The translations under genes were made by a program, and so were the position numbers. From a virus: 64,000 nt of DNA. The stretch lies in IMG/VR virus record IMGVR_UViG_3300045988_144476, one strand, 5' to 3'. A model generated the notes under the pieces. That model ran no database searches. It saw only the letters and a list, made by a program, of their open reading frames with translations, and was not told the DNA's origin. Numbering within the stretch: the first letter of the stretch is position 1; every line of letters begins with the position of its first letter. Shown here piece after piece: positions 7,877-31,061 of this stretch.

Positions 7877-9448
7877 TTATTTAGCAGAAAATAAAGAACC
7901 GAATTTGTTCTTTTTCTGTGTAGATTTAACATTTGCAAGACCAACTTTAGCAGCTGGTTTCTTTGTATCCACTGGTTCTTCAACTACAGCAAAATTAAGT
8001 TTTCCGGCTTTTGCATAAGATAGAAGAATTCCATCTAATTTTTCTTTTAGCTCATCGACTGTGAATTCTTTATGATCGTTCATAAGAGTAGTAAATTCTT
8101 CGGTTTCTTTAATTCCTTTGTAGTCGTCCATTGCAAATAAAGCATCTTTGTTTGCGTCTTCTTCAGCTTTTTCATATTTCTGCAATTTTTCAGAAATAGC
8201 AGCGTAGTTAGAACGCATATTCTGAAGTTCTGTATATTCAGAATCTGTTAAAAGCTCACGATGAAGATTATATCTTTCACCATCAAAAGCAACGTTATCA
8301 CCGTCTTTTGTATAATTCTGTCCGTAGATTTTATCTCCATCCCAGTTTTCATATGTAAAATGTGAATCATAAACTGAATTAATAAAATACCATTCATTAT
8401 CTGATTCTTCATAAGCACTTAAAAGATTGTAAAGTGCATAACGAATATCGCTATGAGACAATTCAAAAGATTTTACAAAGTTTTCTGGTTCCGGATCTGA
8501 TGCTGGATCAGCGGCCGGTTCTGGATCGTTTTCTTCGAATGCTTCAGCAAAAGCAGATTCCAGTTCTTCATCTGAAAGATCTTTATATTCAAAAGTAATA
8601 TCTTCTACGGTTTTACCGTATTTCTGTAAAAGTTCCTCAAATTTATTCACCTGATTCTCCTCCTTTCCTTCAGCATTATTTATATTGAAATTAGAGAGAG
8701 TAGTATTAATTTTCTCCAATGTTTCAACCAATTTAGAGTTAATATCAAAATCTGCATACATAGAATTTGTCTTAGAATTAAAATCAGCAAGCTGAACATT
8801 ACTTCCTGCCATACCTGGACCAACATTTTCATTTAAAAGAGTTAGTCCACCAACATAATAATCATCAAGGTTCAATACTTTGTCTTTGGCATTAAAAGAT
8901 AATTCTCGTATGCTTAATTCAACACTACAATCAACTTTTTCTCTACGTTCCATGATATCAACGGCATCCTGGCAATATCCTTCCCATAGATAACCTTGTA
9001 TCATCGCTCTGTTGACTCCAGCTTCTTTATCATATTCAATAGAGTAATCTTTTTTTATTACACCAACCGGACGTTCCTGATAAATGAATTTCTCATTTCC
9101 GTCATCATCTGTTTCTACTGTAAAATCATGAGAACCAAAATCTTTATTTCCATCAGCATTTTCAACAATATTAGCTAAAATTGGTCTGTATGGAATTGAT
9201 TGAGTATTTTCTTCGAAAACATCTTCTTCTATATTAGATTTATTTAAATTTACATGATCATGATAAGCAGCAGCAACAAATGGTTTCAATCCTTCAGTAT
9301 GTTTATTATCATCAGATTTTCCAAACGTAGCGACTGCAGGCATCTGTACACAAATTTCGGCATTTGATTCTTTACTACTAAATTTCGCAAAATTATTTTG
9401 TATACAAAATTCGATTAAATCATCAATAGTTAAATATTTCTTAACCAT
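7877..9448 (-). CDS. candidate scaffolding protein (possibly fused to an N-terminal maturation domain)
   Basis: 523 aa; the C-terminal half is acidic and coiled-coil-like (EELESAFAEAFEENDPEPAADP..). Lies between the portal and capsid candidates. SD GAAAGGAGGAGC. Confidence 0.4.
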   Translation of the reverse strand: MVKKYLTIDDLIEFCIQNNFAKFSSKESNAEICVQMPAVATFGKSDDNKHTEGLKPFVAAAYHDHVNLNKSNIEEDVFEENTQSIPYRPILANIVENADGNKDFGSHDFTVETDDDGNEKFIYQERPVGVIKKDYSIEYDKEAGVNRAMIQGYLWEGYCQDAVDIMERREKVDCSVELSIRELSFNAKDKVLNLDDYYVGGLTLLNENVGPGMAGSNVQLADFNSKTNSMYADFDINSKLVETLEKINTTLSNFNINNAEGKEENQVNKFEELLQKYGKTVEDITFEYKDLSDEELESAFAEAFEENDPEPAADPASDPEPENFVKSFELSHSDIRYALYNLLSAYEESDNEWYFINSVYDSHFTYENWDGDKIYGQNYTKDGDNVAFDGERYNLHRELLTDSEYTELQNMRSNYAAISEKLQKYEKAEEDANKDALFAMDDYKGIKETEEFTTLMNDHKEFTVDELKEKLDGILLSYAKAGKLNFAVVEEPVDTKKPAAKVGLANVKSTQKKNKFGSLFSAK

Positions 9449-14608: not shown

Positions 14609-14634
14609 AACAACTCCTCCTTGTGTTCGTTAAA

Positions 14635-14709
14635 TAGATGTAGTAGGACTCGAACCTACAAAACTCTGATCCTAAGTCAGATGCGTCTGCCAAATTGCGC
14701 CATACATCC
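14635..14709 (-). tRNA. tRNA with anticodon UAG (Leu codon CUA) but class-I (short variable loop) architecture
   Basis: GGATGTA/TACATCT acceptor, A73. D arm GCGCAATTTGGCAGACGC, anticodon arm TCTGA-CTTAGGA-TCAGA, 5-nt variable loop GTTTT, T arm GTAGG-TTCGAGT-CCTAC. Confidence 0.75.
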
Positions 14710-14714
14710 AAAGA

Positions 14715-16890: not shown

Positions 16891-18336
16891 TTATAATGTA
16901 ATAACCATATCCTTTACAGAAGCAACAACTTTAAATGTTTTATCTTCATTAGATATAGCTGTTTTTAAATCTTGTTTTAAACTATTTTTAGCAACTTCTG
17001 AACCGTGAACTAAAACTAATTTTTCAGTATTTACTTTAGATCCATATGTGATAAGTTCATTTCTGTTAGCATGACTTGAAAATGTTCCAAGAGATATACA
17101 ATCCGCTTTATTTTCAACTCCATCACCACTAATTTTTATTATCTTATTTTCCTTATAGTTTTTAATTCTATATGAAAGATAGGAATTATCAGCTCCGGTA
17201 TATCCGCTAAAAATAACCATACTGTTTTCATCATTTAAGTATTCATGCAAATAAGATAAAATACGTCCATTTGTACAAAAACCTGAACTGCTTAAAACAA
17301 TTTTAGGTCTATGATCTTTAACAATAGCTAAAGAGTCTTCTTTTTCACGAATAAAATGAACTTTATCCCAACTAGATATTTTTCCCCATAACTCCAAATC
17401 ATTATCTGGTAGAAGAGTAGAATATAGATCACAAATATCACATGATAAGATAGAATCAACAATAATGTCATATTGAAAATTCTGATCATGATAAATACTA
17501 TATAGATTTGTCAATATTTCTTGCGTTCTACTAAAACTAAAGCATGGCATAATAACGGATCCACCACGTTCAGTTACTGTGTCAATAGCAGCTTTCAAAT
17601 GATCCAGGTCAAATTTACGTGTTTTCTTATTAATTCGTCCTGGTTCACCATAAGTAGACTCCATAATAGTAATTTTATTAAAATCTGTTGGAATTTCAGT
17701 ATTAGGAACATAATGATTCTTTGTATTCAAAGAACCAATATCAGAAGTGTATAAAATAGATTTTGGGATTCCGTTTTGATCCCGAAGTGTAAGTTGGAGC
17801 TGCCTAGCACCAACGCAATGACTATTTTCATACCATTTAAACGAAACGACATCATCCAAAACATATTGCGTATGAATTTCATCATATTCAACAATATATT
17901 TCAAGGTATCAGTAACATCTGTTTCATCATAGATAGGAGAATAGTTTCTTTTATATTTAAATGATAAAGCATTTGCTTCACTGAGTAAAATAAAAGCACA
18001 ATTATAAAGCAGCGGTTTCATAAGTTGTGCAGTAGCATGTGAAGCAATAATTTTTCCTGTAAATCCTTCTTTTACCAGTCTTGGAAGTAATCCAATATGA
18101 TCAACATGAGTATGTCCAATAAAAACATAATCAATTTCAGAAGGTTTAAATTGAAATTTTGCTGAATTTATATTATATGACTCAAGATAATTATTATTTT
18201 GATATAAACCGCATTCTAATAATATTTTTTTGCCGTTGTATTTAATATAAATACAGCTGCCGGTAACATCATTGGCATTTTGACCTATTAAATAAATGCC
18301 TTCATCTTTTTTCTTTTTAGCTATGTCAAACACCAA
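16891..18336 (-). CDS. metallo-beta-lactamase fold beta-CASP nuclease (RNase J/CPSF-like)
   Basis: HxHxDH motif GHTHVDHIG; IMESTYGE (beta-CASP motif A); FSSHANRNEL (motif B); LVHGSE (motif C). Non-ATG start (TTG/GTG). Confidence 0.8.
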   Translation of the reverse strand: MVFDIAKKKKDEGIYLIGQNANDVTGSCIYIKYNGKKILLECGLYQNNNYLESYNINSAKFQFKPSEIDYVFIGHTHVDHIGLLPRLVKEGFTGKIIASHATAQLMKPLLYNCAFILLSEANALSFKYKRNYSPIYDETDVTDTLKYIVEYDEIHTQYVLDDVVSFKWYENSHCVGARQLQLTLRDQNGIPKSILYTSDIGSLNTKNHYVPNTEIPTDFNKITIMESTYGEPGRINKKTRKFDLDHLKAAIDTVTERGGSVIMPCFSFSRTQEILTNLYSIYHDQNFQYDIIVDSILSCDICDLYSTLLPDNDLELWGKISSWDKVHFIREKEDSLAIVKDHRPKIVLSSSGFCTNGRILSYLHEYLNDENSMVIFSGYTGADNSYLSYRIKNYKENKIIKISGDGVENKADCISLGTFSSHANRNELITYGSKVNTEKLVLVHGSEVAKNSLKQDLKTAISNEDKTFKVVASVKDMVITL

Positions 18337-18748: not shown

Positions 18749-18830
18749 TGGGAGAGGTAGGACTCGAACCTACGATGTTTCTTTGTGGCTGATTTACAGT
18801 CAGCTGCCTTCGCCGCTAGACTACTCTCCC
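18749..18830 (-). tRNA. tRNA-Tyr (GTA)
   Basis: GGGAGAG/CTCTCCC acceptor, A73. Anticodon arm GCTGA-CTGTAAA-TCAGC, long variable arm, T arm GTAGG-TTCGAGT-CCTAC. No encoded CCA. Confidence 0.9.
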
Positions 18831-19147
18831 TTGTGTTAAGTGAACAGCTATTCTTATTAAATATATAACCATAAATGGAGGCCATATATTTTATTGGAAA
18901 CTTAACTTTCCCATATGATTTATGGTTAAATCACAAAAACTTGACTGCGTTTCGTCCTAAGTCAAACTCCCGCCAGATTTTCACGCTACTAGATATCTGG
19001 AACTTATCTTTTAATTCATCAAGAATACAGATTTGCGCCTGTCATTCTAAGATATAGTCTGTGTACTTTAGACTGCCATTTACTTCACTTCCTAAATGGT
19101 CAAAACGTAATCTGGGGCTAGAGGAGCTACCTCCGCATTTCAGATAA

Positions 19148-19219
19148 CACGCCCCCAAAGATTCGAACTCTGACTAATCGGGTTGGAGCCGATTGTACTG
19201 CCAATTATACGAAAGGCGT
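19148..19219 (-). tRNA. tRNA-Trp (CCA)
   Basis: Acceptor ACGCCTT/GGGGCGT, G73. Anticodon arm ATCGG-CTCCAAC-CCGAT, T loop TTCGAAT. Confidence 0.85.
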
Positions 19220-19227
19220 AAATAAAA

Positions 19228-19300
19228 GGTGACTAACGGGATTCGAACCCGTATAAGGTGGATCCACAATCCACTGCATTACCAAATCTGCCATAGTCAC
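19228..19300 (-). tRNA. tRNA-His (GTG), C73, no genome-encoded G-1
   Basis: GTGACTA/TAGTCAC acceptor with U8. Anticodon arm GTGGA-TTGTGGA-TCCAC, T arm ACGGG-TTCGAAT-CCCGT, discriminator C (19228). Position -1 is U (plus-strand a at 19301). Confidence 0.9.
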
Positions 19301-19302
19301 AA

Positions 19303-19384
19303 CGCTGCACACACGATTCGAACGTGCAAATCCTTTCGGACCAACAGTTTTCAAGACTGCTTCTTCACCACCCAGACATGCAGC
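19303..19384 (-). tRNA. tRNA-Ser (TGA)
   Basis: Anticodon arm GCAGT-CTTGAAA-ACTGT, long variable arm TGGTCCGAAAGGATT, T arm GCACG-TTCGAAT-CGTGT, G73. Its 3' end is 2 nt from the tRNA-His 5' end. Confidence 0.8.
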
Positions 19385-19684
19385 ATAAAAAATATCCGTC
19401 TTTCCGGATTGTCAGACTACCCAGTAGTCATTTGCTAATTAATAATAGAAGCTGCGTCCTGCAGTTTCTTTTTTTTGTTTTTATTAATAATTCCTATATG
19501 GGATAACGCAAAGCAGAATACTCGAAATTCAATCCAATAAAGGATCGCATGACTTAGCAGGTCAGCTCCGTGCCTCACGGATTTACTTTGCAAGAGGAGA
19601 GTGGGAGACAGAAGTCTCCCTCAAAAAAAAATGAAAACAATAGTAACATAAACAACATCAAATTTGAGAGAAAAATTCTCTCAA

Positions 19685-19770
19685 TACTACCTGTGGGACT
19701 TGAACCCACACTTCGTATTTCAGAAACAGGATTTTAAGTCCTGTGCGCCTGCCAATTACGCCAAGGTAGC
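19685..19770 (-). tRNA. tRNA-Leu (TAA)
   Basis: GCTACCT/AGGTAGT acceptor, A73. Anticodon arm CAGGA-CTTAAAA-TCCTG, long variable arm, T arm GTGGG-TTCAAGT-CCCAC. Confidence 0.9.
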
Positions 19771-19782
19771 ATTTATGGGATA

Positions 19783-19854
19783 AGCACTATATGAGAATTG
19801 AACTCATATCATCTGATTGGAAGTCAGATATCATTGCCATTAGACCAATAGTGC
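19783..19854 (-). tRNA. tRNA-Gly (TCC)
   Basis: GCACTAT/ATAGTGC acceptor, U73. Anticodon arm TCTGA-CTTCCAA-TCAGA, T arm ATGAG-TTCAATT-CTCAT. Confidence 0.9.
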
Positions 19855-19858
19855 AAAA

Positions 19859-19932
19859 TGCCCGGTGCGAGACTCGAACTCGCATTATTGCCTTGAAAGG
19901 GCAATGTCACTAGCCTGTTAGACCAACCGGAC
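19859..19932 (-). tRNA. tRNA-Glu (TTC)
   Basis: GTCCGGT/ACCGGGC acceptor. Glu-type D arm GTCTAACAGGCTAGTGAC, anticodon arm TTGCC-CTTTCAA-GGCAA, T arm GCGAG-TTCGAGT-CTCGC. Confidence 0.9.
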
Positions 19933-20090
19933 TTATTTTATCTAGGAAGCGGGAAGCGGTCTTCTGCCGAACTGTTTATCTTATTACCTACTAAATTATA
20001 AAGAGCCATGGTTTTATAAAATTTTGGATCTCAGTTTAAAGAACTAAGATAATATTCTTTACGATTAAATCGTACTTAATACTTCCCAAA

Positions 20091-20161
20091 TAGCGGAGAT
20101 TAGATTCGAACTAATGTCTCTAGGGTATGAACCTAGCAAGGATCCACTCCTCTACTCCGCA
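20091..20161 (-). tRNA. tRNA with anticodon CAT (Met, initiator-like, or Ile2), U1/U72 mismatch
   Basis: Acceptor TGCGGAG/CTCCGCT with a 1:72 U-U mismatch; U8; D stem GAGG/CCTT (A11:U24). Anticodon arm CTAGG-TTCATAC-CCTAG, T arm ATTAG-TTCGAAT-CTAAT, A73. Confidence 0.8.
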
Positions 20162-20345
20162 TTAATCGTTTATATGGTAGAACTATATCTGTATCGTCTT
20201 ACAATACATAGCATGTTCACTTATTGCCTACTAAGGATTCCATACTTTATCCCGATCAAAGTATAAAATGGACTCGGTTAATAATTCACATCTCATTTAA
20301 TATACTTTGTGTATGTTTATCCACACCAAACTTTCAGGCACCAAA

Positions 20346-20419
20346 CTGGAATGATGCGATTTGAACGCACAACATCTTGGTCCCAAACCAAGCGGACTGC
20401 CAAATTGTCCTACATTCCA
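20346..20419 (-). tRNA. tRNA-Pro (TGG)
   Basis: TGGAATG/CATTCCA acceptor. D arm GGAC-AATTTGGCA-GTCC, anticodon arm CTTGG-TTTGGGA-CCAAG, T arm GTGCG-TTCAAAT-CGCAT. Confidence 0.85.
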
Positions 20420-21185
20420 TTAATAATAGGATGAGATTATTGACCTATTTAAATCAGCTTTGCTTACCGTTGGAAGTAAGTAATCACACGAACGATTAAT
20501 TCGTAGCTGATAGCGACACCAGTTTCAGTGGCTACTGGCAAACTCTTACTACATAGTATTATAAATTTCCTTTCAGCACATTCTTCCTTGCGAGATTCAG
20601 AGATTGCAGTCTCTTAGAGTTGCACCTAATTGTACTTTTTCATATTTCACCTTGCGAGTTTAATATGTGTCCATATTACAGAACAATAAGTCGCTTTTCT
20701 CTATGTAGTCGCATACACTTTTGCTTAATATAAGAATTTAACATTATTTTATGTTTTCTAACCAATTAAAAATATGTATGCTATTATTTATAGACTACGA
20801 GGTATACGTTTGAACATCTGTATCTTTTGAATACAGCCCATTCATCGCAGCCTTGCTTGTCTTGCTATCGACTCACTTTAGGCTATTCTAACTATCTTTC
20901 GATTTAAGTCAGAAATGTCCAATTAAATACAGCACTTGCTCTTGCGGAACTTGCACCATAAAACAACCTTACTGTCCACCCATTTCTGAGTTTATTTATA
21001 GCACCTTTCCCATGATGCCCGACCAACCATTGTCCTCAGCGGATGCCCCAAGACTTTAGGTTGGAACGTTAGTAAGTATTGGCTTTCTATCACCCCTCTT
21101 TAGAAGGAGGCACTTTCGTGCTTTATACGTGTCACCACGCTTATTTAACGACTTGAAGCCAGCCGATCTAATATTTATATATTTT
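20420..21185. ncRNA. ORF-free, hairpin-rich segment inside the tRNA array (candidate structured RNA, class unknown)
   Basis: About 0.77 kb with no credible ORF and locally GC-enriched. GNRA-type hairpins on the - strand include GCAC-GAAA-GTGC (21110-21121) and ATC-GAAA-GAT. CTCGCAAGG occurs twice (20586-20594, 20650-20658). Confidence 0.3.
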
Positions 21186-21218
21186 ATAAAAAAAACATAA
21201 AGCTTATTAGATAAAGCT
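21186..21218 (-). terminator. terminator after tRNA-Asn
   Basis: AGCTT-tatctaat-AAGCT hairpin, followed on the - strand by TTATGTTTTTTTTAT. Confidence 0.55.
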
Positions 21219-21221
21219 AAG

Positions 21222-21294
21222 CTGACCCAGTAGGAATTGAACCTACGACACGCTGGTTAACAGCCAGCTGCTCTACCTATTGAGCTATGGGCCA
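21222..21294 (-). tRNA. tRNA-Asn (GTT)
   Basis: TGGCCCA/TGGGTCA acceptor. D arm GCTC-AATAGGTA-GAGC, anticodon arm GCTGG-CTGTTAA-CCAGC, T arm GTAGG-TTCAATT-CCTAC, G73. Confidence 0.9.
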
Positions 21295-22309: not shown

Positions 22310-25174
22310 TTAAACCAACTTTTTTTTTGAATTCGTGTAATTTTTGCGGAAATTTTGAAGGAATGCATCTTTATCCATATTGTAAAGAAGATTAAGCAAG
22401 TTACGTGTATACCGAATGTATTCTTTAGCTTTACCTCGATTACTGGTATTTAAAGCAATTTCAATAAGTCTGCTCATTGTTTTTGGATTTTTTATTTTCA
22501 TTTTACGTAAATCTTTAAGAATTTCATCAAATCTTTGAGTATATGCTATAATATCGTCATCTGACATATTATCTTTACTCAATAACTCTAATTCTTTAGC
22601 ATATCCTATAATTTTATCCATTTGTCTTCGATTAGCATCGCCAGAAACTTTTATAATAAAATCTTTCGTAGGAGTAGAATTTTTAGAAGAGATAGGTTTA
22701 ATCTCATTTATTACAATCTGCAGAGCATTCATAGGACATATATAATAGGAAGAAATTCTGTTATTGAGCTTGTCAACCTGTTGCATAACTTCTTCTTTTT
22801 CAAGTTCTTTACCGTTCTTTGTATATGAAATTTTCCTTGTATATCTCATAAACTCTGGAAAATCAATTTTCTGTTTCTTGGTATTGCCATCTTCATCAAC
22901 ATATTCCCTATACCGATTCATGCATTCCATTCTTTTGATTCTCTTTATTTCATCAAGAGCGTCAACTTCATATTCTCTTTTGCAACCATCAATTATAACT
23001 TGGGCAAGAACAGAAAGAATAACGAAGTTATCGTATAATTCCCTTGTAGGTTCAGTCCAATAATATGTCATAGCAAGCTGTGCTAAATTACTAGATTCAC
23101 CAATACCAATTCTAGATTTTGCAAATTTATTATCCATACGAGCGTACTCTTTGAGTGTATTCTTATATGTAAGGCCGCTTTCTTTAAGCTTATTTACAAT
23201 AGTAGGATATTTTTGATATGCAATTTTTGCACTTTGTACCATTACATCATTATTAGTAACAAAAAAGAAATCTGAATCAAAATCACATCCATTAGCACGA
23301 TCCTGGATATCAGTATGGATACAATTTACAAACATGATATTGTTACTAATATTAAAATATCGCTTAAATCTATCATCATAGTGATTATGTAAGTAGCAAA
23401 TATTATTAGGACTATTATGAGGGTTTCTGATACCACACAAATATTCACCATCATCAAATCTTTTGGTATATACCTGAATTACGCCATCTTCATGTTTAAA
23501 AGTTGGATCGTCATCCGGATTTTCTCCTACAGCTTTCATTAAAAGAGCATAAGGATTTCCAAAAATAGTTAAGTTATCTCCATTTATAGTAATTTTACCG
23601 GTACGAAGTTTATTTACATATTGATTTATAATTTTTCTTTTTTCAAATCTAAACCATGTACTTTCTGCAAATTCATTGTTCCAATTATACAAATCTGCCA
23701 GCATTTCATAGTGATTCACTACATTTGCATTTTTTCTCAGATAATCAACATAAATACCATTGTCAACTTTCATAGATTCAACATAATCAACACTTTTTTT
23801 AGCTAATTTACGAATTTCATTTACATAGCAGCATGGAAGAATATCATCTTTATAAGAAGGAAGAGTATTAACCATTTGATAGCTCATCTGTTGCACATTA
23901 CCTAATTTACTTGGATGATCGGTTTTAACTATCCCCCAGTAGGATCCATCAGCATTAACTCTATCACACCAATATTTATAGGCATCTGCAGGTGTTTTAC
24001 CCATCAAATTCATGAATTTCTTCCATTTAATAGCATTATCTGTTGTAATCATCTTAATATCTTTCAATTTATGTAAAATACCAAACATATCCTTTACTTC
24101 ATATGTTTCGTAATCATACCCATGTTCAGCACACCAATCTTTTAAAAATAACTGTATTTCACATCGAATAGCACATGCTTTAAAGAAATGTTCTCTCAAA
24201 AGTGCCATTCCATTCACCCATGATGGAAGAATAGAAGACTCTGCAAGCATCTCACCATCAAATAAAGTATTTTTTACCTCAGTTTCCTCATCATGAACGA
24301 CACATTTTTTCTTAATTACCGGAATTGTTTTATATCTTCTGGTATATTTCGGAGTAACGCCATCTTTAAGAAATTTCTTTTCCTTAATAGCCTTTTGTCT
24401 AGCAGCTTCAGTAGCTTCTTCATCAAGAACACGTTCATAATCTGTATATTCTTCAGCTGAAACAATCTTAGCCATCGTTTTAAAAAAACTGTCATGATCC
24501 TTAAGAATTAAAATATCTTCAACAGGACAATGAAATTTCCCTACAATAGTAGAAGTAGTAAGCGGAGCATAAGCTGACATTTCAACAATTTTCGCATCGT
24601 CAATAGGCATTTTGTCTCCAAGTCCCATAGTGAGCCAATCATATGCCTTTTTGTATAATTTACTATTAATAAACATTACCTGGCCAATTTTAGCCTTTGA
24701 AGAATTTCGGTAAAGCATTTTATAATTAATTTTCTGTACCTTTTCTTCATTTTTCTTAGAGTATTTGGTCCGGTATGTAACATCTATACCATTTTCATAG
24801 AATAATTCTCTAATTTCATCTTTGGACATTTTTAGATAATTATCCTTATTAGCCTGTACATTTTCAAATATTTGTTTAATTCTTTCTTTTGATTCCTTTG
24901 TAAGAGAAGCATCTTCCTCATATCCTTTAAATTGTTTCCTTAAATGAGTAATTTCTTCTTCATAGCTGCGACTACCAAAATTAAAATCAAGACAGATAAT
25001 ATCTCTTGTACTTGTATCATTCCATATATTTAAACCATGTTCTTTTATCCAGTCTGAGAATAAACTGTTACTGAACATAGCATCAGTAAAATCAAATCTT
25101 TCACGAACACCCTGATTATTTCCAAAGAGAGTGCCGGCTTTTATATTTTTTATTTTTAATCCAAATTCTGACAA
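22310..25174 (-). CDS. YonO/cellular-RdRP-like single-subunit two-barrel RNA polymerase (candidate)
   Basis: 954 aa. GIRNPHNSPNNI, then 48 aa later ANGCDFDSDFFFV. This parallels the ..NPxLHPGD.. and ..GGDxDGDxYFV catalytic signature of RdRP/YonO-type polymerases and NADFDGD of beta-prime. TTG start after AAGGAGGTG. Confidence 0.65.
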   Translation of the reverse strand: MSEFGLKIKNIKAGTLFGNNQGVRERFDFTDAMFSNSLFSDWIKEHGLNIWNDTSTRDIICLDFNFGSRSYEEEITHLRKQFKGYEEDASLTKESKERIKQIFENVQANKDNYLKMSKDEIRELFYENGIDVTYRTKYSKKNEEKVQKINYKMLYRNSSKAKIGQVMFINSKLYKKAYDWLTMGLGDKMPIDDAKIVEMSAYAPLTTSTIVGKFHCPVEDILILKDHDSFFKTMAKIVSAEEYTDYERVLDEEATEAARQKAIKEKKFLKDGVTPKYTRRYKTIPVIKKKCVVHDEETEVKNTLFDGEMLAESSILPSWVNGMALLREHFFKACAIRCEIQLFLKDWCAEHGYDYETYEVKDMFGILHKLKDIKMITTDNAIKWKKFMNLMGKTPADAYKYWCDRVNADGSYWGIVKTDHPSKLGNVQQMSYQMVNTLPSYKDDILPCCYVNEIRKLAKKSVDYVESMKVDNGIYVDYLRKNANVVNHYEMLADLYNWNNEFAESTWFRFEKRKIINQYVNKLRTGKITINGDNLTIFGNPYALLMKAVGENPDDDPTFKHEDGVIQVYTKRFDDGEYLCGIRNPHNSPNNICYLHNHYDDRFKRYFNISNNIMFVNCIHTDIQDRANGCDFDSDFFFVTNNDVMVQSAKIAYQKYPTIVNKLKESGLTYKNTLKEYARMDNKFAKSRIGIGESSNLAQLAMTYYWTEPTRELYDNFVILSVLAQVIIDGCKREYEVDALDEIKRIKRMECMNRYREYVDEDGNTKKQKIDFPEFMRYTRKISYTKNGKELEKEEVMQQVDKLNNRISSYYICPMNALQIVINEIKPISSKNSTPTKDFIIKVSGDANRRQMDKIIGYAKELELLSKDNMSDDDIIAYTQRFDEILKDLRKMKIKNPKTMSRLIEIALNTSNRGKAKEYIRYTRNLLNLLYNMDKDAFLQNFRKNYTNSKKKLV

Positions 25175-25186
25175 ACAAACACCTCC

Positions 25187-26920
25187 TTAAAATGGAATTA
25201 GCGTATTATTATATTCTCGTGTAGACATAACTATATTATTGTCAGAATTAGTTGATGAAATGCTTCTATTAATTGATGAAACACTGTGATGGAAACGTGA
25301 ACGTGTATATCTGCCATAATCTTCCATAAATTGTTTTAAAACCTTTTTATCTTTATTTTTAATTTTATCAGATTCGCATTTCTTTAACTGTTTCTGCAAA
25401 TTACTTAATTGTCTATTACTACTAAGTGTACCTAATGGTCCACCAATTTTCATTTTTATATCTTTCTTTTTACGTTCAATCTCTTTTTTAAGAAATTCAA
25501 TTTTCTTATCCAAATCTTCATTTATCATTTTTTCAAAAGCTTTATTATATCTATCGATGTAATATTGCTGAAGATCTTTGGAGAATGTCTTCATCAGATC
25601 ATTCCATGTCATTTTCTCAATTTCTTCTATATTAATAGATTTAGCAAAATCAATAATATCTTTCACGAACTCAAGAGTAAGTAAAAATGTCTCATATTTT
25701 AAAGTACTTTTGAACATTCTAAATTCAATGGTGTCTTTGTGCTGTAAGTTTAACGCAGCTTTTTTACCGGTATTATCATACTTTGCAAGCAGATTAAGAA
25801 CCGTATCTTCTTTACAACGATCACCCACAAATTGACTATAATCCGTATTTCTTCTTCCAATAACACAAATATTGTCGTTAAATTTCTCAATAATATACAA
25901 TATTTTAGAAATTACCAGATCCTGCTGCATTTTGGTTTTACCTAAATAATCTCTATTTGCATGAATATGTAAGCCTGCAGTATTACAATCATGTCCTTTA
26001 TAACCCATTTCATCAAGATATTTAAACATTTCTTTGTAGTTCATCTTGTTTTTATGATATTCTAAGCTACAAGGCATAGTATCAAGTTCAATTTGAACCG
26101 TACCATCATGAGTACTATATATAAGATCTTCTTTATCAGACTCAGATCCATTCATTATTTGAATACATCTCTTTACAACTGATTGTTTATTATTAGAATC
26201 TACTTCTGGTTTATTTCCACCAACTTCTATTTCTGCTCCAAGTAGAAGAGTAGTACGTTTATTTTCGTGGTCCATAAAATGTTTAATATATTCTGGCGTA
26301 TAATTATATTCATGAATATAGTATTTTTTATTACAATTATTTATCATAGCAGTTCGTAACATTGATGCACTGTAATCTATAAAAAAATCATTAGCATAAG
26401 AAGATGAAGCACTAACTGATTCTATTAGACGATCTAAGCCCCTATCATTTACAACATTCCCATTAGTATCTACTTTTCTATATCCGATTAATTCACATCT
26501 ATTACATTCTGCATTAAAATATACATTATCATTAGATAGACTATTTAATCTGTGTTGTGATACAAGTTTTCTAGATACTTCATACGTATCGGTATTTAGT
26601 CTGCTACAGAACCAATTATAAAATAAATTAAAATTATAAATAATTCGACAATCAAATCTATGCCAGCCAGAATCATCGCAATATGAAACAGTTGCGGTAT
26701 CTATATCTGTATAATTCGATAGTGCTATTCTTACTTTTTCAGCTAATTCACGCATATTAAATTCAATTGCATAATCATTACATTCAAAAATAATACAATC
26801 TCCAAAACTATTATTTGTATAAATACATCTTATATTTGTAACAAAATAATTATCTACAACAAATGGATCCTGAAGACTAATAGTATGTCCGTCAATCTCT
26901 ATATCAGGTAATAATTTCAT
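25187..26920 (-). CDS. glutamine-synthetase-like amidoligase domain protein with coiled-coil C-terminus
   Basis: LLLGAEIEVGG, TAGLHIHANRD and TIEFRMFKSTL match the ExE / HxH / ExR pattern of the Amidoligase_2 family. The C-terminal 120 aa is Lys-rich coiled coil. Confidence 0.55.
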   Translation of the reverse strand: MKLLPDIEIDGHTISLQDPFVVDNYFVTNIRCIYTNNSFGDCIIFECNDYAIEFNMRELAEKVRIALSNYTDIDTATVSYCDDSGWHRFDCRIIYNFNLFYNWFCSRLNTDTYEVSRKLVSQHRLNSLSNDNVYFNAECNRCELIGYRKVDTNGNVVNDRGLDRLIESVSASSSYANDFFIDYSASMLRTAMINNCNKKYYIHEYNYTPEYIKHFMDHENKRTTLLLGAEIEVGGNKPEVDSNNKQSVVKRCIQIMNGSESDKEDLIYSTHDGTVQIELDTMPCSLEYHKNKMNYKEMFKYLDEMGYKGHDCNTAGLHIHANRDYLGKTKMQQDLVISKILYIIEKFNDNICVIGRRNTDYSQFVGDRCKEDTVLNLLAKYDNTGKKAALNLQHKDTIEFRMFKSTLKYETFLLTLEFVKDIIDFAKSINIEEIEKMTWNDLMKTFSKDLQQYYIDRYNKAFEKMINEDLDKKIEFLKKEIERKKKDIKMKIGGPLGTLSSNRQLSNLQKQLKKCESDKIKNKDKKVLKQFMEDYGRYTRSRFHHSVSSINRSISSTNSDNNIVMSTREYNNTLIPF

Positions 26921-27660: not shown

Positions 27661-28494
27661 TTATTCCCCCACATATACTAATTTATTTATATATTCTCTA
27701 CCTTCATTCCGAAATACAGGAATTTGAACATCTATACGCCAATAATCACCACTATAATTCTTAACGCAACAAATTCCACGTTGTTTATGTGTTTCAAAAT
27801 CATTATCAAAATCAATATTTTTCTGCTTATGTAACATTTCTTTAATATCAGCAGTATTTTTATTCTGCAGTTCTTTCTGAGAAAAATTAGCCTGACCAAC
27901 CATCTGAATTGAATTACGAATACAATCCTGCTGTCTCCAGAAAAAATAATTAGTGACTTCATCTTTAGAGAGATTAAAACATCTGGAGTCAAAACCTTTA
28001 TACTTAACTTCAATTGCATTACTTAAATAATTAATATAAGTGAGATCTTCCTGATGCTGATTAATAAGCCATTGATTGGTACATCCCATATCCCAATTAG
28101 GAATATTTTTATAACCAAATTTCTCAATATTGTTCTCAAATACTTCTTTGAACCTAATAGTAGCTAGAGCAGCAGAGGTACTAACTATTTTCTGAATACG
28201 ATTATCAAACCAAGGTTGAGTATCAAAATCTTTATAATCAATAAGAAGTAATGAGATTTCATCAGACTGAGTATATGCAATAACACAATTCTGTACATTC
28301 TTACATAAATACAAAGCAGTCTGTTGCATAGAATTAATCAAAATATCATCAAATGGCCTCTTGAATCCTCTTGTAAAACTATGAAATCTGCGGCCATCAA
28401 GTCTAATGATTACCGGCATTCTCCGGATCAACTTCTGGTCCGTGACTTTTTCGTAGCTTTTCATTCTGATATCTAAATCTGTGTATACTGGCAT
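27661..28494 (-). CDS. Thg1-like protein (tRNA-His guanylyltransferase / 3'-5' nucleotidyltransferase family)
   Basis: IIRLDGRRFHSF, RPFDD, CVIAYTQSDEISLLL, FDSRCF and YFFWRQQDCIRNS line up with human THG1L VVRLDGRNFHRF, KPND, IVIAYGQSDEYSFVF, FDGRVV and YLSWRQADCHINN. Confidence 0.9.
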   Translation of the reverse strand: MPVYTDLDIRMKSYEKVTDQKLIRRMPVIIRLDGRRFHSFTRGFKRPFDDILINSMQQTALYLCKNVQNCVIAYTQSDEISLLLIDYKDFDTQPWFDNRIQKIVSTSAALATIRFKEVFENNIEKFGYKNIPNWDMGCTNQWLINQHQEDLTYINYLSNAIEVKYKGFDSRCFNLSKDEVTNYFFWRQQDCIRNSIQMVGQANFSQKELQNKNTADIKEMLHKQKNIDFDNDFETHKQRGICCVKNYSGDYWRIDVQIPVFRNEGREYINKLVYVGE

Positions 28495-28497
28495 TGT

Positions 28498-28824
28498 TTA
28501 ACTCTCCTTATCTGATTTTCCTAAAATTTTTTCAACAGAATGTGTACATTGATGAGTAACTTCAATAAAATCATTATTGTCTAATTCATTCTGACAATTC
28601 CTAAAGAATTTATTATAAATTTCATTTACACATTCTTTACTACAGCAATCAAGAGGTCTATCTTGATTCCAATTGTCATTTTTATCTACTTTTGTTATGG
28701 ATATCATCCAATAATGCTGCGGAATCTTCATTTTACGTCCACATACATCACAAACATAAGTATGATCAACAAGCACACGCTGTATCACTTGGCGTTCTTC
28801 AAATTTGTTTTCAATCATATGCAA
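28498..28824 (-). CDS. hypothetical Cys-containing protein (108 aa)
   Basis: CDVCGRK...CCSKEC; packed array. Confidence 0.55.
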   Translation of the reverse strand: MHMIENKFEERQVIQRVLVDHTYVCDVCGRKMKIPQHYWMISITKVDKNDNWNQDRPLDCCSKECVNEIYNKFFRNCQNELDNNDFIEVTHQCTHSVEKILGKSDKES

Positions 28825-30887: not shown

Positions 30888-31061
30888 TTTATAAAGATTT
30901 TTTAAATCAGCTTTTATGTAGTTGGTATTTCTACTACATAATTGTCAAATGTTAAATCTGGAGATGTAAGTAGTGATTTAATCAAATAACCGTTGCTGAT
31001 TGTTTGTAGTATATCACTGAAAAATGAGGATGTCAATAGGCTTTTTAAATAATATGCTAGG

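Follow-up and report, generated by a model that had tools for sequence, protein, structure and literature searches.

Which RNA would a phage-encoded Thg1-like protein (TLP) act on, and does the phage carry that substrate itself? The question is raised by a 64,000-nucleotide stretch of the IMG/VR virus record IMGVR_UViG_3300045988_144476, referred to below as the window. An open reading frame (ORF) of this window, located on the minus strand (27661..28494) and read from its ATG start, encodes a 277-aa protein of the Thg1/TLP family. A tRNA-His(GUG) gene, whose sequence does not include a guanosine at position -1 (G-1), lies 8.36 kb away on the same strand (19228..19300). The reading favoured here, held with a confidence slightly above even, is that the protein acts as a templated 3'-5' polymerase of tRNA 5' ends, which adds G-1 to the phage tRNA-His and also takes part in broader 5'-end repair.

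The 277-aa protein is a predicted TLP-type nucleotidyltransferase

An earlier note on this DNA had assigned the 277-aa product to the Thg1/TLP family on the basis of conserved sequence blocks, and this assignment was borne out. The quoted blocks VIIRLDGRRFHSF, NCVIAYTQSDEIS and YFFWRQQDCIRN were all present in the ORF 27661-28494. The Pfam Thg1 profile (PF04446) matched residues 10-135 of the TLP with E = 2.3e-30 and 105.6 bits, far above the cut-off of 29.2, and the PHROG 4717 profile, described as 'tRNA-His guanylyltransferase', matched at 4e-78. The other Pfam family named in the note, Thg1C (PF14413), reached only 19.3 bits in the C-terminal region and stayed below its cut-off of 26.3, although matches of PF14413 above the threshold do occur in some TLP homologues. 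No meaningful match was found among the NCBIfam profiles. The alignment with the TLP of Bacillus thuringiensis (BtTLP, PDB 4kgk) was obtained at E = 1e-54 and consisted of two blocks, with residues 9-121 of the window TLP corresponding to residues 6-118 of BtTLP and residues 167-275 to residues 127-239 (second block, E = 7e-22). Eukaryotic Thg1 proteins (human, yeast, Candida) were matched only at 1e-12 to 5e-06. The resulting domain layout comprises an N-terminal palm/catalytic domain (residues ~10-135), a lineage-specific helical insertion relative to BtTLP (~122-166) and a Thg1C-like region (~167-275).

The AlphaFold2 model of the TLP, with 25 homologues in the alignment, had a mean pLDDT of 88 and a pTM of 0.87. 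Its 32 best Foldseek matches in the PDB were all Thg1/TLP proteins, with BtTLP (4kgm/4kgk) at the top (E = 1.3e-20, TMt 0.85), archaeal TLP-tRNA complexes next and eukaryotic Thg1 after them. The model superposed on whole BtTLP chains, and the two proteins shared the same two-domain fold, with 33-38% identity in the Foldseek alignments (PDB 4KGK/4KGM). The mapping of residues was based on the BtTLP paper (PMC3701042) and the PDB profile alignment. The metal-binding carboxylates D30/D75/E76 of BtTLP (D29, D76 and E77 in hTHG1) correspond to D33/D78/E79 of the window TLP, so that the palm-domain carboxylates expected in the earlier note were found in the model. Residues R28, E12, S74, K99, R131 and M158 of BtTLP are matched by R31, E15, S77, K102, R171 and M198, respectively. 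The contacts to the nucleoside triphosphate (NTP) are thereby retained at R31, S77, K102, R171 and M198, and the NTP-contacting N194 also matches BtTLP. D33, D78, E79 and most of the other mapped residues were invariant in the alignment of 25 homologues.

The window TLP differs from BtTLP in having R46 in place of K43, which contacts the ATP adenine, in a shorter beta-hairpin before the C-terminus and in the insertion of ~45 residues at positions 122-166, which was confidently modelled as helical and is variable or missing in the sister alleles described below. It differs, moreover, in being encoded by a phage beside a tRNA array.

The HINNLYN motif has a role in the tRNA-His specificity of eukaryotic Thg1. 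In human THG1 this motif ('adcHINNLYNtvf') aligns with IRNSIQM of the window TLP ('qdcIRNSI...QMv') and, because of this replacement, the window protein is assigned on its sequence to the bacterial/archaeal TLP type rather than to the eukaryotic Thg1 type. Yeast and human Thg1 belong to the same superfamily and share its fold and two-metal chemistry, but their identity to the window TLP is only ~20% (E ~1e-12). The logic of the pathway would also be alike, with a tRNA-His gene devoid of G-1 and an enzyme adding this nucleotide post-transcriptionally. However, eukaryotic Thg1 adds G-1 untemplated opposite A73, whereas the addition by the window TLP would be Watson-Crick templated by C73. The TLP of the archaeon Methanosarcina acetivorans (MaTLP, PDB 5AXK-5AXN) resembles the window TLP in structure (E = 4e-13) and in the template-dependent repair predicted for the latter, but shows ~24% identity and is cellular rather than viral. 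Phage proteins of PHROG 4717 (Bc431v3 gp143, FNU3 gp59 and Bacillus phage G gp378) are 38-48% identical to the window TLP and likewise come from large tRNA-carrying phages. Jointly with the dual role outlined above, and at the same strength of just over an even chance, the sequence and the model predict that the 277-aa protein is an active TLP-type 3'-5' nucleotidyltransferase.

The phage tRNA-His gene lacks G-1 and retains C73

The ARAGORN analysis revealed 11 tRNA genes in the window, all on the minus strand, in agreement with the number given in the earlier note. Ten of them (Asn, Pro, Met, Glu, Gly, Leu, Ser, His, Trp and Tyr) form an array at 18749..21294, in which no gene encodes CCA, and the 11th, Leu(UAG), is located at 14634-14710. 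The tRNA-His(GUG) gene, identified by ARAGORN and by reading of the sequence, has an acceptor stem of 7 bp, in which G1-U2-G3-A4-C5-U6-A7 is paired with U66-A-G-U-C-A-C72, followed by C73. The base at position -1 (19301) is T. G-1 is thus not encoded, whereas its template and pairing partner C73 is present, and the tRNA is predicted to be a substrate for templated G-1 addition. The apparent substrate that the earlier note had placed 8 kb from the TLP gene was therefore confirmed in this configuration, which proved invariant in the phage family. Between the discriminator of tRNA-Ser (19303) and the +1 position of tRNA-His there is only the dinucleotide 'TT'.

The cleavage by RNase P that retains G-1 depends on the G-1:C73 pair, and for this reason U-1 should give an ordinary cleavage at +1. 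T at -1 was the norm among the tRNAs of the phage family, being found in 80 of 105 distinct genes, with G in only one, which indicates that the tRNA-His has the design of an ordinary substrate of RNase P. A comparison of nine U-1/C73 alleles of tRNA-His showed compensatory changes in 15 of the 21 cloverleaf pairs, with G1-C72, U2-A71, G3-C70 and C73 invariant. Since the cloverleaf is kept by compensatory changes, these genes represent constrained tRNAs and not pseudogenes.

TLP and tRNA-His genes in the phage family

Relatives of the window phage, found by exact-protein look-ups, shared a common module consisting of Bro-N/Ant, small ORFs, TLP, a gene for a protein of ~550-590 aa, a gene for a protein of ~950 aa, HU, the tRNA array and a beta-CASP ribonuclease. 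The use of the 954-aa gene of the window as an anchor yielded 59 IMG/VR loci spanning the TLP slot and the tRNA array. Among the loci covering both regions, 33 carried TLP together with a U-1/C73 tRNA-His, four carried TLP only and seven carried neither, whereas none carried tRNA-His only. All seven loci devoid of both genes were distant ones, with the anchor below 70% identity. The tRNA-His genes counted in the family loci, that of the window among them, numbered 43 and had T at -1 without exception, and C73 was invariant. Three relatives from assemblies (L203, L204 and L206) also encoded TLP and a U-1/C73 tRNA-His. Two of them, L203 and L204, matched the window, and the tRNA-His of L206 had a different body and an encoded CCA but still U-1/C73.

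Four TLP alleles, ~50% identical to one another, were found in one syntenic slot, located ~3.5-4.4 kb upstream of the 954-aa anchor (L210-L268) and surrounded by genes of 72-78% identity. The xDG, QSDE and WRQQD motifs as well as D33, D78 and E79 were kept in all four alleles, two of which sit in phages without tRNA-His. The dN/dS ratio of the window-type allele was 0.11-0.40, and 0.13-0.18 in pairs with L001, a relative lacking tRNA-His, showing that the TLP gene is under purifying selection. In the L210-type and L234/L266-type alleles, glutamine occupies the position of R31 (R28 of BtTLP, a contact of the incoming GTP).

Genomic context of the TLP gene

The TLP gene is co-directional with and upstream of the phage tRNA array. 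A Shine-Dalgarno sequence, AAGGAG (28504..28509, minus strand, read from the sequence), is located 9 nt 5' of its ATG, the stop codon of the upstream ORF (28498-28500) lies 3 nt before the ATG and the 3' end of the gene overlaps the next ORF (start 27674) by 14 nt. To judge by the spacing, the close upstream stop and the overlap, the gene is packed in the manner of an operon. A promoter-like site (TTGACA, 17 nt, TG-TATACT; 11/12 matches, extended -10) was noticed in the divergent intergenic region at 31008..31036 on the minus strand. This consensus match is a candidate start of a leftward unit running through Ant/Bro-N, the small ORFs and TLP onward, for which it constitutes weak evidence, as the total number of such sites was not above that in shuffled sequences.

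Two genes, syntenic in all relatives, separate TLP from the tRNA array on the minus strand. The first encodes a 577-aa protein (25187-26920) with a borderline match to Amidoligase_2 (22.1 bits, cut-off 22) and the second a 954-aa protein of PHROG 8308 (22310-25174). The array is directly flanked by a gene (16891..18336, minus strand) for a metallo-beta-lactamase ribonuclease of the beta-CASP/RMMBL type, recognised by the Pfam profiles Beta-Casp, Lactamase_B and RMMBL. Its structure matches comprised Thermus thermophilus TTHA0252 (4e-37), Cas14 of type VII CRISPR and CPSF73/IntS11. No other gene of the module is as well conserved (76-99% identity in relatives), and its product may take part in the processing of the phage tRNA precursor. 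The plus strand encodes, at 52959-54239, a 426-aa reverse transcriptase (Pfam RVT_1, 2e-23), which displays sub-threshold similarity to NCBIfam models of group II intron, retron and Drt reverse transcriptases. The portal protein of the window phage is only 25-30% identical to portals of Firmicutes phages.

TLP genes and tRNA-His end types in other viruses

The window TLP is a further member of a well-annotated phage family, and the annotation of the gene is in itself routine. The tblastn search detected TLP homologues in 159 GenBank phage records, including those of Bacillus (46), Prevotella Lak phages (15), Caulobacter (13), Mycobacterium (11) and Brevundimonas (7), and most of these homologues were already annotated as tRNA-His guanylyltransferase. 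The best GenBank match, with 48% identity, came from Fusobacterium phage FNU3. The gene for gp143 of Bc431v3 was recorded earlier as a phage Thg1 gene (PMC3601020) and such genes are also noted in a survey of jumbo phages (PMC7824862). An alignment-based scan of IMG/VR identified TLP relatives in at least 581 contigs, whereas a single-protein scan with the window TLP found none. Thousands of metagenomic proteins matched the window TLP, with identity up to 95%.

The frequency of the different tRNA-His ends was assessed in IMG/VR with a pattern built on the anticodon arm and T-arm of tRNA-His, in which positions -1 and 73 were left free; the first spacer base and the T-loop served as anchors for reading the ends. 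This neutral sample of 100 viral tRNA-His genes comprised 70 genes of the G-1/C73 type, 16 of U-1/C73, six of G/A, four of C/A, two of U/A and two of U/U. In arrays of at least three tRNA genes, 45 tRNA-His genes had G at -1 and 23 did not. Every C73 tRNA-His with a base other than G at -1 had U in this position. Genes for tRNA-His without G-1 thus form a sizeable minority in phages. The widespread U-1/C73 class, whose acceptor ends show the canonical GUG/CAC+C73 sequence, includes IMG/VR loci L083, L099, L105, L110, L115, L119, L123, L126, L163 and others, as well as FelixO1 (AF320576, 29097-29172; L269) and Streptomyces phage MeganTheeKilla (L270). The BLAST search of GenBank phages with the window tRNA-His returned mostly FelixO1-like and Streptomyces phages, not the phages with TLP.

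Several other acceptor ends were observed in these searches. On two separate contigs, L092 (2749-2825) and L155 (416-492), the tRNA-His combines G-1 and C73 with a U1xC72 mismatch (5' g|TTGGCT., 3' ..GTCAC|C|CCA). Phage tRNA-His genes of the 'tatgGTGTT..' type (L062, L116, L144, L152, L162, L175, L177 and others) contain two adjacent acceptor mismatches, at 4:69/5:68 or 5:68/6:67, with U.U at both 4:69 and 5:68 in L062. In Bacillus phages of different families, namely Bc431v3 (JX094431, 156701-156774; L271), JBP901 (L272), Tsamsa (L273) and Deep Blue (L274), the end of tRNA-His is invariant, with 'tttc' upstream, C1-G72, A73 and no G-1, whereas the body varies with compensatory changes. In the unrelated TLP-carrying IMG/VR contig L063, ARAGORN predicted a tRNA at 8731 with the anticodon CUA (amber suppressor, labelled Pyl), and the contig may come from a stop-codon-recoding phage.

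Proposed role of the TLP and alternative explanations

In the proposed pathway, host RNase P would cleave the precursor of the phage tRNA-His at +1 in the usual way, as U-1 cannot pair with C73, and would leave a 5'-monophosphate on G1 and a stem of 7 bp. The TLP would then activate the 5' phosphate with ATP or GTP and place a single G opposite C73. The G-1:C73 pair so formed would be the feature recognised by bacterial histidyl-tRNA synthetase (HisRS), and the same template-dependent chemistry would also rebuild any 5'-truncated tRNA. TLPs are known to extend 5'-truncated tRNAs by Watson-Crick templated nucleotides, and MaTLP can also bind in a second way that depends on the His anticodon and gives G-1 addition on C73 tRNA-His lacking G-1 (PMC4820378). 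Both roles considered in the earlier note were already put forward in 2010 by Anantharaman et al., who proposed either a dedicated maturation of tRNA-His or RNA repair against host defences (PMC2904730).

A number of observations weigh against a TLP tied to tRNA-His. At least six relatives (L001, L205, L221, L234, L240 and L266) have intact TLP motifs and a fully covered array without tRNA-His. Among them, L205 encodes the same TLP protein as L204 and has lost tRNA-His, and L001, whose TLP is the closest to that of the window in IMG/VR among the matches listed (70%), has a fully bounded array devoid of this gene. As the TLP is kept in these phages, tRNA-His cannot be its sole reason, and its retention there is probably due to the broader activity in 5'-end repair or quality control. 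The lack of loci with tRNA-His only has little discriminating power because TLP is universal among close relatives. Outside the family, TLP-carrying phages have tRNA-His ends of the G-1/A73/CCA (FNU3), G-1/C73 (L062), U-1/A73 (L006) and C-1/C1-G72/A73 (Bc431v3) types. The acceptor end of the Bc431v3 type is also present in JBP901, Tsamsa and Deep Blue, regarded as TLP-less since the 46 Bacillus TLP records, an essentially complete list, do not include them. Because of A73, templated addition would not give G-1 in FNU3 and Bc431v3, whereas the U-1/C73 end of the window phage is an ideal template. FelixO1, from a lineage absent from the TLP match list, has a U-1/C73 tRNA-His without TLP, and GenBank flags this gene as a pseudogene. 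Caulobacter phages (the 13 records mentioned above) encode TLP even though Caulobacter has a tRNA-His without G-1 and a HisRS that makes no use of this nucleotide (PMC3875453). Unrelated IMG/VR TLP loci adjoining arrays of 5-13 tRNAs had no tRNA-His nearby. Furthermore, no experimental or biochemical study of any phage TLP was found in the literature searched.

Because FNU3, L062, L006, the Bacillus phages, FelixO1, the Caulobacter phages and the unrelated arrays break the pattern, there is no general coupling between TLP and G-1-less tRNA-His across lineages. tRNA-His was located within 10 kb of TLP in only two of 80 IMG/VR loci from the alignment-based scan, and no contig was common to the TLP-carrying and tRNA-His-carrying IMG/VR contigs among the matches listed. 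The tblastn search of short IMG/VR tRNA-His loci revealed no TLP, and no tRNAs were found within 20 kb on either side of TLP in Staphylococcus phage PMBT8 and Bc431v3. The co-inheritance of TLP with G-1-less tRNA-His, which the earlier note had suggested surveying in related phages, was seen in the 33 family loci with both genes, with none that had tRNA-His only, but not in the TLP-only relatives, and the picture was mixed in other lineages. The maturation of tRNA-His is accordingly a plausible and, for this phage family with its invariant U-1/C73 end, well-supported role, but not an exclusive one.

These findings could also mean that the TLP serves purely in general tRNA 5'-end repair or quality control, with G-1 addition to the phage tRNA-His being incidental, inefficient or absent. 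Its targets would be phage and host tRNAs that were cut wrongly when the densely packed array was processed or were trimmed by host nucleases. Such a role would suit the persistence of TLP under purifying selection in relatives without tRNA-His, its presence in Caulobacter and Brevundimonas phages (Caulobacter, the host checked, having no G-1 identity) and beside the tRNA-His-less arrays of unrelated loci, the occurrence of a U-1/C73 tRNA-His in TLP-less FelixO1 and the preference of BtTLP for repair substrates over full-length tRNA-His (PMC3701042). However, the phage tRNAs display no general mismatches at the 5' end for repair to mend, and the literature checked gave no evidence of a defence nuclease that takes nucleotides off the 5' end of tRNAs, such as the host nucleases invoked in the earlier note. 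Retron-Eco7 PtuAB was considered as a candidate for cutting tRNA 5' acceptor ends and discarded, as the paper on it gave no such site. A repair function alone would also leave unexplained the aminoacylation of a constrained, otherwise canonical C73 tRNA-His without G-1, and it is considered rather unlikely, though it deserves serious attention.

The TLP and beta-CASP ribonuclease genes lie on either side of the tRNA array and have been conserved together throughout the family, which might suggest a 5'-editing pair like that of amoebozoan mitochondria, in which the nuclease trims the 5' end and TLP rebuilds it on the 3' strand. The window tRNA-Met(CAU) gene (20091-20161, minus strand) has a U1.U72 mismatch atop its acceptor stem, as a target of editing would. 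Nevertheless, U1.U72 was itself kept in all family alleles while positions 6-7 co-varied; the mismatch looks like the initiator-type 1:72 mismatch, as judged from the sequence, and not like an editing target, although the anticodon stem of this tRNA contains only two G-C pairs. No other tRNA showed mismatches at positions 1-3, and a beta-CASP gene was found near TLP in only two of 79 loci from other phage families. Mitochondrial-style 5' editing, left with the conserved U1.U72 of tRNA-Met as the only 5' mismatch, was rejected as very improbable. Some eukaryotic TLPs may act on substrates other than tRNA, and the helical insertion at ~122-166 together with the four ~50%-identical alleles at one slot points to a fast evolution of the non-catalytic parts. 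Both would be in line with an action on a small RNA, with priming or with a non-polymerase role such as nucleotide signalling by palm domains of the GGDEF/CRISPR-polymerase kind. Yet the full set of active-site residues for tRNA repair by TLPs is conserved, the best structural matches are TLPs and TLP-tRNA complexes and the gene lies in a tRNA-rich module, so a function of this kind has only the slimmest chance. The dual role, G-1 addition to the phage tRNA-His combined with broader 5'-end repair, remains the preferred explanation.

Significance

To our knowledge, no natural substrate for G-1 addition has been described in bacteria. Bacteria normally encode G-1 in the tRNA-His gene, and hence the role of bacterial-type TLPs has been unclear. 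According to the survey presented here, phages commonly carry C73 tRNA-His genes without G-1, which made up 16 of the 100 genes in the neutral sample and always had U at -1, and some of the phages concerned have no TLP. The joint occurrence of TLP and a constrained C73 tRNA-His lacking G-1 in one phage module provides a concrete and testable enzyme-substrate pair, which is of value because it gives a bacterial-type TLP a natural candidate substrate. It may tentatively be proposed, at somewhat less than an even chance, that this phage family possesses a self-contained Thg1-like pathway of the bacterial world, in which the U-1/C73 tRNA-His depends on the phage's own TLP. TLPs of the bacterial type would then have, in this tRNA, their first in vivo substrate that is natural and genetically defined.

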